Origin: Myxococcota bacterium
GTDB taxonomy: Bacteria > Myxococcota > B64-G9
Length of the DNA: 64,000 nt
NCBI GenBank assembly: GCA_035453905.1
Contig: DAOTDZ010000014.1
Location: 150,452-214,451 of the forward strand
Direction of reading: 5' to 3'
Part shown: one piece after another, positions 49,726 through 51,086 of the stretch
How the letters are laid out: every line of letters begins with the position of its first letter
Position numbering within the stretch: the stretch's first letter is position 1
Program-made: the position numbers and the translations under genes
The notes under the pieces: generated by a model
Databases searched by the model: none
Told to the model about the DNA's origin: nothing
The model's input: only the letters and a program-made list of their open reading frames with translations

Positions 49726-50166
49726 CTAGGCGAAGGCCAGCAAGCCCTCGCCGGTCTGGACCCGCTTGCCCACCGCGGTCAGGATGCTCTCGATCCGGCC
49801 CGCGCGGCTGGCGCGGATCTCGTTCTCCATCTTCATCGCCTCGAGCAACAGCAGCACCTCGCCCGGCTTCACCTCCTGGCCGACCTTCACCAGGATGCGG
49901 GTGACCACGCCGGGCATCACCGCGGTGAGCACGTTCGAGCCCGCCGCCGCCGGGGCGGACGCGGGCGCCGCCGCCGGCCGGGGCGCGGGGGCCTGTGGCC
50001 GCGGCCCGGACGGAGCGGCCTGCGGCTGGACCGCCGGCGACTCCCGCCGGATGGCCACCTCGAGCCGCTCGCCGTCCACGTCCACCACGGCGGCCTCGGC
50101 GCCCAGGCTCTCGACGCGCACCCGGAAGGTCTTACCCCGCACGGTCAACTCGAGCTCGTTCGCCAT
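49726..50166 (-). CDS. Biotin/lipoyl-attachment domain protein (BCCP-like, EAMKM biotinylation motif)
   Basis: Start MANELELT has GGAGGAG with a 9-nt spacer. Pro/Ala linker. C-terminal biotinyl domain with EAMKMENEI. Confidence 0.75.
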   Translation of the reverse strand: MANELELTVRGKTFRVRVESLGAEAAVVDVDGERLEVAIRRESPAVQPQAAPSGPRPQAPAPRPAAAPASAPAAAGSNVLTAVMPGVVTRILVKVGQEVKPGEVLLLLEAMKMENEIRASRAGRIESILTAVGKRVQTGEGLLAFA

Positions 50167-50243
50167 GCCTTCTCGCTCCTCCGTCCGCGACCCAGGGCCG
50201 GATGGTACCTGTTTGGGGGCGGAAATCAACACCTGCCGAGGGC

Positions 50244-51086
50244 TCAGGGCCGCTCGCCGCCAGGCTTCTGCTTGGCCTTCTTGAGCATCTCGTCGAGGGG
50301 CAGCCTGGTGACGCCGTCCGCGGGCGGCTCGGGGGGCGGCGCGGGCTCCGCGGGCTCCACGCCCGGGTCGTCCCCGCCGAACAGCCAGGCCCGCAGGGCG
50401 CGGTCTCCCACGCGCAGCGCCAGCGGGTCCCGGAGCCCAACCAGCCCGGGCAGGGCCTGCAGCAGGGGCTGCTCGCCCGCGGCCTGGAGGACCTTCGCCA
50501 CCGCCGCGTGACTCGCCAGGTACAGGGCCGGGTCGGGGATGTTCCCCTGGGCGCGCCAGCGCAGCTCGATGGCCTGCAGGCTGGCCTCGTCCGGGGGCGG
50601 GGCCGCGCGCACGCGCTCGCCGCCGAAGTGCTCGGCCAGCCCTTCGTTGAGCCAGGTGGGGCAGTGGCCCCGGGACACCTGGAACACCAGGTAGTGGGTC
50701 AGCTCGTGGGCCAGCATGCCCGGCAGCAGGCGCTGCTTCCACATGCGGCGCACGATCTTGGTGGCCTGGGTGACGATGCCGTGGCGCGAGGAGTACACCG
50801 CGCCGGTCGACAGCGTGCGCCCGGTGCGCTCGTGGAAGGCGCGCGGATCGTCCGCGATCAGGATCTGCACCATCTCCTGGCCATCGAGCGCGAGCCCGAA
50901 GCGCGGCGCCAGGTCGGCCAGCTTCTGGCAGGCGATCTCGGCCAGCTTGGGCCCGACCTCGCCGTGCGGATCGACGGGATCCTCGAGCAGCACCGCCACC
51001 TCGGGGCAGGCGCTCAGGCGGAAGGGCTCGGCCCCGACCGCGCCGGAGGCGAGCAGGACGGCCAGGGCGAGGCCGACGCGCTGCAT
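50244..51086 (-). CDS. Secreted gluzincin-type metalloprotease-like protein (HELTHY … NEGLAE, thermolysin-like zinc ligands)
   Basis: Start MQRVGLALAVLLASGAVGA has a signal peptide. HExxH plus a downstream NExxxE. Lies 25 nt downstream of the MVP homolog. Confidence 0.6.
   Translation of the reverse strand: MQRVGLALAVLLASGAVGAEPFRLSACPEVAVLLEDPVDPHGEVGPKLAEIACQKLADLAPRFGLALDGQEMVQILIADDPRAFHERTGRTLSTGAVYSSRHGIVTQATKIVRRMWKQRLLPGMLAHELTHYLVFQVSRGHCPTWLNEGLAEHFGGERVRAAPPPDEASLQAIELRWRAQGNIPDPALYLASHAAVAKVLQAAGEQPLLQALPGLVGLRDPLALRVGDRALRAWLFGGDDPGVEPAEPAPPPEPPADGVTRLPLDEMLKKAKQKPGGERP

Follow-up and report, generated by a model that had tools for sequence, protein, structure and literature searches.

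A biotin carboxyl carrier-type gene at the head of a poly-gamma-glutamate operon, with a rare secreted metallopeptidase as its neighbor

A carrier gene upstream of pgsB

We analyzed 64,000 nucleotides (nt) of contig DAOTDZ010000014.1 (assembly GCA_035453905.1, positions 150,452 to 214,451 of the forward strand; this whole stretch is referred to here as the window), with attention to two genes that lie between a vault-like gene and pgsB, the gene for poly-gamma-glutamate (PGA) synthase. One encodes a secreted protein with an HExxH motif, and the other encodes a stand-alone biotinyl carrier. The G+C content of the window is ~70%, and the closest database names of its proteins point to a Myxococcota metagenome-assembled genome (MAG). 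Both genes belong to a run of same-direction genes on the minus strand that extends from an ExbD-like gene down to a TIGR04332 gene (46.8 to 56.8 kb). The gene for the 280-aa HExxH protein occupies positions 50244 to 51086, and that for the 146-aa biotinyl protein occupies positions 49726 to 50166; in both cases, the open reading frame (ORF) was correctly placed on the minus strand, and its coding nature was supported by a gene call based on G+C at third codon positions. The biotinyl stop codon lies 31 nt from the start of pgsB (48495 to 49694), which has its own GGAGG ribosome-binding site. On the same strand follow pgsC (48014 to 48478) and a TIGR04332 gene, annotated as a PGA system protein (46812 to 48017), which is the last of the unit. 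The three proteins exceeded the cutoffs of their family models, with 410 bits against 223 for TIGR04012 (PgsB), 126 against 96 for TIGR04011 (PgsC, also matched by Pfam Caps_synth_CapC), and 327 against 100 for TIGR04332. What an initial annotation of this DNA had presented as a single finding is made up of two unrelated accessory genes.

The biotinyl protein has three parts, an N-terminal beta segment (residues 1 to 42), a 34-residue Ala/Pro linker (43 to 76), and a biotinyl domain (77 to 146). It matched Pfam Biotin_lipoyl with 61 bits against a cutoff of 22 and contains the motif EAMKMENEI with lysine K112 (nt 49831 to 49833). Among 13 orthologues, EAMKMEN was invariant and the N-terminal segment was conserved; the linker was variable (39 to 80% Ala plus Pro). 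The NCBIfam model PRK05641 covered nearly the whole protein (query 7 to 143 on model 6 to 150 of 153), end-to-end alignments were also obtained with PRK06549 and MmdC, and carrier residues 3 to 144 aligned to the C-terminal tails of PycB (465 to 588) and OadA (475 to 594). Matches in the PDB were the biotin carboxyl carrier protein (BCCP) of P. horikoshii (2d5d), 1dcz (domain), and residues 470 to 613 of PycB (5ks8_C). The scores stayed below the equivalog cutoffs, at 106 bits against 199 for PRK05641, 93 against 159 for PRK06549, and 78 against 200 for MmdC. By these alignments, the 146-aa protein is a biotin carboxyl carrier of the 1.3S/MmdC/GcdC type, and biotin is almost certainly attached to K112.

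The initial annotation had described the carrier as lacking a carboxylase partner nearby, and this description held. Our search for a partner enzyme was confined to the 64-kb window, out of the whole genome, and to the flanks of relatives. In the window, 34 ORFs were scanned with Pfam and the other called ORFs were judged by eye from their translations (RecA, MreB/C/D, PBP2, RodA, thioredoxin, SpeA, Cys-rich repeat proteins, and a few small unrecognized ORFs); neither group contained a biotin carboxylase or carboxyltransferase domain, and no second AMKM motif was present in any frame. In the flanks fetched for six relatives, which reached up to 10 kb on either side, there was likewise no carboxylase partner or accC. 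The same results bear on whether the protein is simply AccB, with accC located just beyond the window, as the initial annotation had allowed. The two share the biotinyl domain and nothing more, but the AccB model TIGR00531 gave 45 bits against a cutoff of 115, the best models were those of the MmdC, PycB, and OadA types, and accC was found neither in the window, which extends 49 kb to one side of the gene and 14 kb to the other, nor in the flanks of the six relatives. We therefore rejected AccB as the identity of the carrier, and an accC just outside the window can very nearly be discarded as an explanation. Two further identities were tried and rejected. For a PilZ-like, cyclic di-GMP (c-di-GMP)-binding N terminus, neither an RxxxR nor a DxSxxG motif was present, and the only Arg that was invariant in a 5-sequence alignment was no longer invariant among the 13 orthologues. 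For a membrane-fusion (HlyD-like) protein, no signal peptide or transmembrane segment was found, and the biotinylation motif is kept.

With the biotinyl protein as the sole query, a search for homologues returned 4 true orthologues and was then swamped by generic two-domain carriers. Loci (numbered with L) were gathered through homologues of the HExxH protein, genome and metagenome scans with PgsB, and divergent PgsB homologues, and the window genes were mapped onto them by tblastn and with a hidden Markov model of the carrier. The biotinyl gene immediately preceded pgsB, in the same orientation, in 15 non-identical loci (the window, L021, L004, L001, L105, L007, L009, L010, L011/L104, L012, L014, L025, L015/L026, L022, and L103). 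Gaps between the two genes were ~16 to 185 nt, the larger values resting on uncertain pgsB starts, and PgsB was 57 to 89% identical among these loci. They fall within a clade of Myxococcota/'Deltaproteobacteria' MAGs in which PgsB is at least 56% identical, and at the edge of which the bit score drops from 468 to 381. The TIGR04332 gene followed pgsC in nearly all examined loci. Upstream of the carrier, the neighboring gene varied and encoded the HExxH protein, a phosphonate-type binding protein (behind a dCache-HAMP-GGDEF cyclase), or a 408/413-aa protein, or was a reversed P_proprotein gene; downstream of the TIGR04332 gene, the genes differed in two loci. Breakpoints recurred just upstream of the carrier and downstream of the TIGR04332 gene, and never between the carrier and pgsB.

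The 77-nt spacer between the HExxH and biotinyl genes contains a promoter-like footprint, TTGATTTCC-N13-TACCAT (50202 to 50229, minus strand), located ~35 nt upstream of the biotinyl ATG. When the spacers were compared, two blocks, GGTGTTGATTTCC and TACCATCC, proved to be shared without change by the window, L021 (~6800 to 6830), and L004 (~10870 to 10900), and the rest of the spacer drifts. The footprint pattern was unique in the window, with 0 occurrences expected, and -35/-10-like pairs of the form TTGnnn-N16-18-TAnnnT occupied the equivalent position in L001, L007, L011, L014, L022, and L025. A terminator and promoter consensus scan of the minus strand between 46 and 57 kb gave no match; it missed the footprint because both hexamers agree with the consensus at only 4 of 6 positions. 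We regard the conserved footprint as a promoter-like element that would serve the carrier-led unit, and its position upstream of the carrier gene makes the carrier the first cistron and leaves the HExxH gene outside.

Taken together, these data define a four-gene unit, biotinyl-pgsB-pgsC-TIGR04332, in which the carrier is the first cistron and from which the HExxH gene is excluded. The carrier gene has the same orientation as the PGA synthase genes and is apparently co-transcribed with them. Little work exists on PGA operons outside Bacillus, and the form defined here is clade specific; a literature search for a biotin carrier heading a PGA operon found no report, and searches on PGA and biotin, the TIGR04332 protein, and orphan carriers turned up nothing pertinent except the Corynebacterium work on biotin limitation (PMC4928254).

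Several genes around the PGA unit in these loci deserve mention in their own right. In at least seven lineages, the carrier-PGA unit is directly preceded by genes for a dCache-HAMP-GGDEF diguanylate cyclase and a phosphonate-type periplasmic binding protein (L001, 13696 to 16040; L007, 2805 to 5149; also L009, L010, L012, L014, L015/L026, L105, and L107). This pair, absent from the window lineage, suggests that PGA production is under the control of c-di-GMP. The 408/413-aa proteins encoded directly upstream of the carrier gene in L010 (3620 to 4861) and L103 (7488 to 8714) are 42% identical to each other and belong to no Pfam family, with a weak match to Porin_4 (E of 0.09). On the other side of the unit, a plus-strand gene at 46061 to 46810 encodes a 249-aa protein with a conserved ~100-aa N-terminal domain and an Ala/Pro-rich tail. 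The gene is convergent with the TIGR04332 gene in every case, the two being 1 nt apart in the window, and has homologues in nearly all loci of the clade; it is clade specific like the carrier, yet it is also present in L024 and L102, two loci that lack the carrier. Lone PgsB-like genes (L013, 7929 to 9149; L020, 7929 to 9149; L027, 6001 to 7134) encode proteins 62 to 64% identical to the window PgsB and adjoin RseP (M50) and Peptidase_C69 genes, with no pgsC, TIGR04332, or carrier gene nearby; such a gene may be a paralogue with another role. Lastly, a secreted 5'-nucleotidase/metallophosphatase encoded 45 kb from the PGA operon (1928 to 3811, minus strand) gave a PGA_cap (CapA/PgsA family) score of 26.6 bits against a cutoff of 27, which probably reflects clan-level similarity only.

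The HExxH protein and the vault-like gene

The N terminus of the HExxH protein, MQRVGLALAVLLASGAVGA followed by EP, reads as a typical signal peptide (residues 1 to 19, nt 51030 to 51086) with predicted cleavage after VGA and before EP, and its hydrophobic core and A-x-A site (small-x-small, followed by EP) are kept in an alignment of 8 homologues. Residues H127, E128, H131, and E148 and three cysteines are invariant in all 8. The zinc-site motifs (50634 to 50708, minus strand), HELTH (H127 to H131, nt 50694 to 50708) and NEGLA (N147 to A151, nt 50634 to 50648), rest on invariant alignment columns, and we infer from fold matches that they lie on the active-site helices. The HExxH helix, a second helix with a Glu ligand, and an upper beta-sheet subdomain, the features of gluzincin clan MA(E), were all found. 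The protein is a periplasmic or extracellular zinc metallopeptidase of the thermolysin-like gluzincin fold, in which H127, H131, and E148 would hold the zinc and E128 would act as the catalytic base.

The secreted 280-aa zinc protease that the initial annotation had recognized is real. Its assignment of a thermolysin HExxH plus NExxSD geometry was right with respect to fold and superfamily, which are of the Peptidase_MA_2 type, but not with respect to the thermolysin family M4: neither Peptidase_M4 nor Peptidase_M4_C was matched even at E≤10, the second motif is NEGLAE and not NExxSD, and H131 and E148 are spaced by 17 residues, against 20 in thermolysin. The profile searches it had proposed were divided in outcome: Biotin_lipoyl was matched above its cutoff on the carrier, but Peptidase_MA_2 gave 16 bits against a cutoff of 32.4 on the HExxH protein, a sub-threshold score that counts against our reading of the protease. 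Other sub-threshold Pfam and NCBIfam matches were SprT-like and flagellinolysin. A profile of the 8 homologues matched 2096 proteins at E≤1e-3, and four sampled matches (P0154, P0155, P0159, and P0175; E of ~1e-13 to 4e-11) passed the PF13485 cutoff. Linked through these profile matches, the HExxH protein is homologous to Peptidase_MA_2 (PF13485) at the superfamily level. The family is rare: a search of 5.8 billion proteins gave 8 clusters, and 18 representative clusters were reached at E≤1e-30 in a set of 1.84 billion. The protein belongs to a divergent, rare branch of the Peptidase_MA_2 superfamily. All 8 members have a variable low-complexity acidic/Pro linker and then the C-terminal peptide G-V-T-R-L-P-L-D-x-M-L-K (the TRLPLDxM motif; 50244 to 50330 in the window, minus strand), which may be an auto-inhibitory or sorting element. 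To the superfamily, the protease adds a small rare branch and little more.

The constant neighbor of the HExxH gene is speA, which is divergent from it in L001, L105, and L107; an ExbD-like gene sits between the two in L004, L021, and the window. The ancestral site of the HExxH gene is thus the one divergent from speA. The gene lies ~5 to 7 kb and at least four genes from the PGA/carrier unit in L001 and L105, has no PGA gene beside it in the few kb available in L107 and L003, and is missing from the flanks of 9 other loci with the carrier and PGA genes, one of which, L007, is cut by the contig end where the gene would be expected. The HExxH and biotinyl genes abut only in the sub-lineage of the window, L021, and L004; there, the intervening genes, including the GGDEF/binding-protein pair, are absent, which brings the two together. 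We also considered whether the protease processes PGA, as a depolymerase or in anchoring or trimming, and is in this way a functional member of the PGA locus. It is secreted, its gene immediately precedes the operon in the window, L021, and L004, and a hydrolase gene is found near the PGA loci of Bacillus. Such a role is nonetheless very unlikely given the distances in L001 and L105, the lack of a PGA gene beside the HExxH gene in L107 and L003, and the absence of the gene from the 9 other loci; the known PGA hydrolases belong to other folds. The protease is a positional neighbor, neither a PGA nor a vault component.

The gene upstream of it, an MVP-like gene (51112 to 53319/53376, minus strand; Pfam MVP_shoulder with 107 bits, and Vault_3), was found only in the window and L021, where the MVP-like proteins are 90% identical and the HExxH proteins 81% identical. 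It is absent from L004, whose HExxH protein is 68% identical, and from all other relatives. The MVP-like gene is part of a lineage-specific insertion (51112 to 55835, minus strand; 3017 to 5915 in L021) between the HExxH gene and the ExbD-like gene that marks the upstream end of the run (55885 to 56760, minus strand); in L004, the ExbD-like and HExxH genes are adjacent, with neither MVP nor its companion. That companion differs between the two loci that have the insertion. In L021 it is an MNT/HepT toxin-antitoxin pair, and in the window it is a gene of no assigned function (53409 to 55835, minus strand) whose 808-aa product has thrombospondin-type-3-like Asp-rich repeats. The G+C content of the insertion is 0.66 to 0.68, against 0.70 to 0.73 around it, and the gap from MVP to HExxH is 10 to 25 nt. 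Bacterial MVP homologues have already been described in Myxococcales (bioRxiv 10.1101/872010).

The presence of MVP in the window and L021 only, its variable companions, and the lower G+C content argue that it is a recent arrival at a variable spot, and its confinement to the two closest relatives implies that the biotinyl gene was at this site before it. The history is therefore the reverse of that suggested by the initial annotation, which saw the two genes as wedged between the vault gene and pgsB: the carrier is the first cistron in 15 loci, and MVP came later. The accompanying proposal, in which the biotinyl protein would serve a vault-like assembly as carrier or tag, gains from the common strand of the carrier and MVP-like genes in the window and L021. 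Set against this are the 13 further loci (6- to 10-kb flanks, less at contig ends) in which the carrier stands upstream of pgsB with no MVP gene, the variable insertion site of MVP in the two closest relatives, and the promoter-like element that stands between the carrier and the HExxH and MVP genes. An origin of the carrier as a vault tag is ruled out by the later arrival of MVP, and the proposal is almost certainly wrong. A tempting link between MVP and its neighbors is thereby removed for lack of comparative support.

Elsewhere in the window, a 1364-aa FecR-VIT-vWA-TPR protein is encoded at 17364 to 21458 (plus strand), 30 kb from the MVP-like gene. VIT and vWA are domains of the eukaryotic vault partner VPARP; proteins of this kind are common in bacteria, and the presence of this one may mean nothing. 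Near-identical antisense ORFs at 5229 to 5492 and 9224 to 9487 (both minus strand) are a sign of a repeated DNA module, which is common to two paralogous Cys-rich secreted proteins (6415 to 7896 and 9828 to 10676, plus strand). Further Cys-rich repeat proteins are encoded at 21556 to 24711 (with Dictyostelium CTDC repeats), 35405 to 37837, and 59890 to 63866. Positions 12000 to 14000 form a low-G+C patch (0.557 against ~0.70, with a GC skew of 0.133), no tRNA genes were found in the window, and Rfam gave no match on 49500 to 51300.

Possible roles of the carrier

The explanation that we favor overall, and hold tentatively, is that the carrier serves a remote biotin-dependent enzyme and is expressed from the PGA promoter. 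The descriptive half of this explanation is very likely correct, and the mechanistic half is rather doubtful. As the carrier corresponds to the PycB/OadA tail in detached form, it would work with an enzyme of biotin-dependent carboxyl transfer that has its catalytic subunits encoded at another place in the genome. Most plausibly, the partner would be a carboxyltransferase of the OadA/PycB type without a BCCP tail of its own, acting with either a biotin carboxylase or a subunit of a membrane decarboxylase. Under the PGA promoter, the carrier would switch on this activity when glutamate is drained into polymer, an example being an anaplerotic supply of oxaloacetate for conversion via 2-oxoglutarate to glutamate. 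In Corynebacterium, biotin status affects glutamate overflow and PGA yield (PMC4928254).

A number of observations weigh against this explanation. No partner enzyme was found within the window and the relatives' flanks. A lone 1.3S-type carrier in a foreign operon is atypical, such carriers normally lying beside their catalytic subunits. Two loci within the clade, L024 and the most divergent, basal L102, lack the carrier. The pgsB-pgsC-TIGR04332 triad is widespread outside the clade, in 75 loci with PgsB 41 to 52% identical (four of them Cloacimonadales genomes, with Planctomycetes, Phycisphaerae, and Chlamydiae among the named PgsB homologues), and none of these 75 loci contained a biotinyl domain in 595 kb of flanks (6 to 8 kb each, less at contig ends; 66 of the loci have >600 nt of upstream sequence). 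Finally, gene order in the clade is shared over the whole region as far as mreB, so part of the adjacency of carrier and pgsB could reflect inheritance rather than selection. From its absence in L024, L102, and the 75 loci outside the clade, we conclude that the carrier is dispensable for PGA synthesis as such. This agrees with the initial view that neither gene is expected in a canonical PGA operon, as the HExxH gene is confined to a sub-lineage and is not always adjacent.

A different explanation is that the carrier is a dedicated subunit or regulator of PGA synthase, with an N-terminal segment for docking to PgsB, PgsC, or the TIGR04332 protein and a biotinyl (barrel-sandwich) domain that acts as a swinging arm, primer, or switch. 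Consistent with this, it is the first cistron in 15 loci, paired invariably with pgsB behind variable upstream neighbors, with no carboxylase nearby and with a conserved N-terminal segment of the docking type. However, 75 loci outside the clade and two within it do without a carrier, and nothing in the sequence distinguishes the protein from an ordinary carrier of the 1.3S/MmdC type. When a chimera of the biotinyl protein and PgsB was used as a query, no natural fusion with PgsB appeared among the 120 best matches, those listed being 372 to 450 aa long and devoid of PF00364. Biotin is also not known to have a role in amide-ligase chemistry, and we consider a dedicated subunit or regulator unlikely. 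That the carrier is a working part of the PGA machinery, either as a subunit docking on PgsB, PgsC, or TIGR04332 or as the carrier of a biotin step in PGA precursor supply, strikes us as improbable; if true, it would be the first link of a biotin carrier to an amide-ligase biopolymer synthase. A carrier tied to PGA would mean a dedicated biotin-dependent route to glutamate, a regulatory use of biotin status, or an unexpected synthase subunit, any of which could matter for the engineering of PGA production.

The carrier gene might instead be a neutral relic that landed once upstream of pgsB in the ancestor of the clade and was kept along without any link to PGA. Synteny of the block from the biotinyl gene to mreB across the clade fits this idea, as do the loss of the carrier from L024, which kept the operon, and the carrier-less state of the basal L102. 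It does not account for breakpoints that flank the unit repeatedly and never fall between carrier and pgsB, for the footprint upstream of the carrier, which implies shared regulation with the PGA genes, or for the strict conservation of the biotinylation motif, and we give it a low probability. By analogy, an abundant apo-carrier made along with the PGA synthase could also act as a biotin sink or sensor that, by titration, deprives acetyl-CoA carboxylase of biotin or of biotin ligase and so diverts carbon to glutamate. No partner is encoded nearby, the carrier is the first and presumably best-translated cistron, and PGA yield rose under biotin limitation in C. glutamicum expressing pgsBCA (PMC4928254). 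The conserved N-terminal partner-binding segment would be superfluous for a sink, and this role is highly improbable.

Comparison with known systems

The HExxH protein is 11 to 16% identical to Peptidase_MA_2 (PF13485) and to members of the gluzincin families M1, M9, M30, and M4 (thermolysin). It differs from these in being small (~260 aa when mature), in having no pro-domain of the FTP/PepSY type, and in its own TRLPLDxM motif, and it fits no MEROPS family by the tests run.

The carrier resembles the 1.3S subunit of Propionibacterium transcarboxylase, MmdC, GcdC, and the 149-aa BCCP of P. horikoshii in its N-terminal beta segment, Ala/Pro linker, and EAMKME biotinyl domain. Such carriers normally have genes for carboxyltransferase or decarboxylase subunits next to their own, whereas the window carrier heads a PGA operon and has no catalytic subunit in the window or the relatives' flanks. 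Compared with PycB of two-subunit pyruvate carboxylase and OadA of oxaloacetate decarboxylase, it corresponds to the tail alone, without the carboxyltransferase domain. Orphan biotinyl/lipoyl proteins such as B. subtilis BLAP/YngHB and the 7-kDa biotinylated protein of M. tuberculosis consist of a single domain of ~70 aa. The carrier is like them in being a stand-alone biotinyl domain protein without an obvious enzyme partner, but it keeps an N-terminal docking segment and a linker and has a conserved operon context.

The operon itself has the same pgsB-pgsC-TIGR04332 order as the 75 loci outside the clade, and its PgsB, PgsC, and TIGR04332 proteins pass the cutoffs of their families. In contrast to those operons outside Bacillus and to the pgsBCAE operon of Bacillus, the unit in the window clade has no PgsA/CapA (PGA_cap) gene and begins with an extra first cistron, the carrier gene, that is present in this one clade only.

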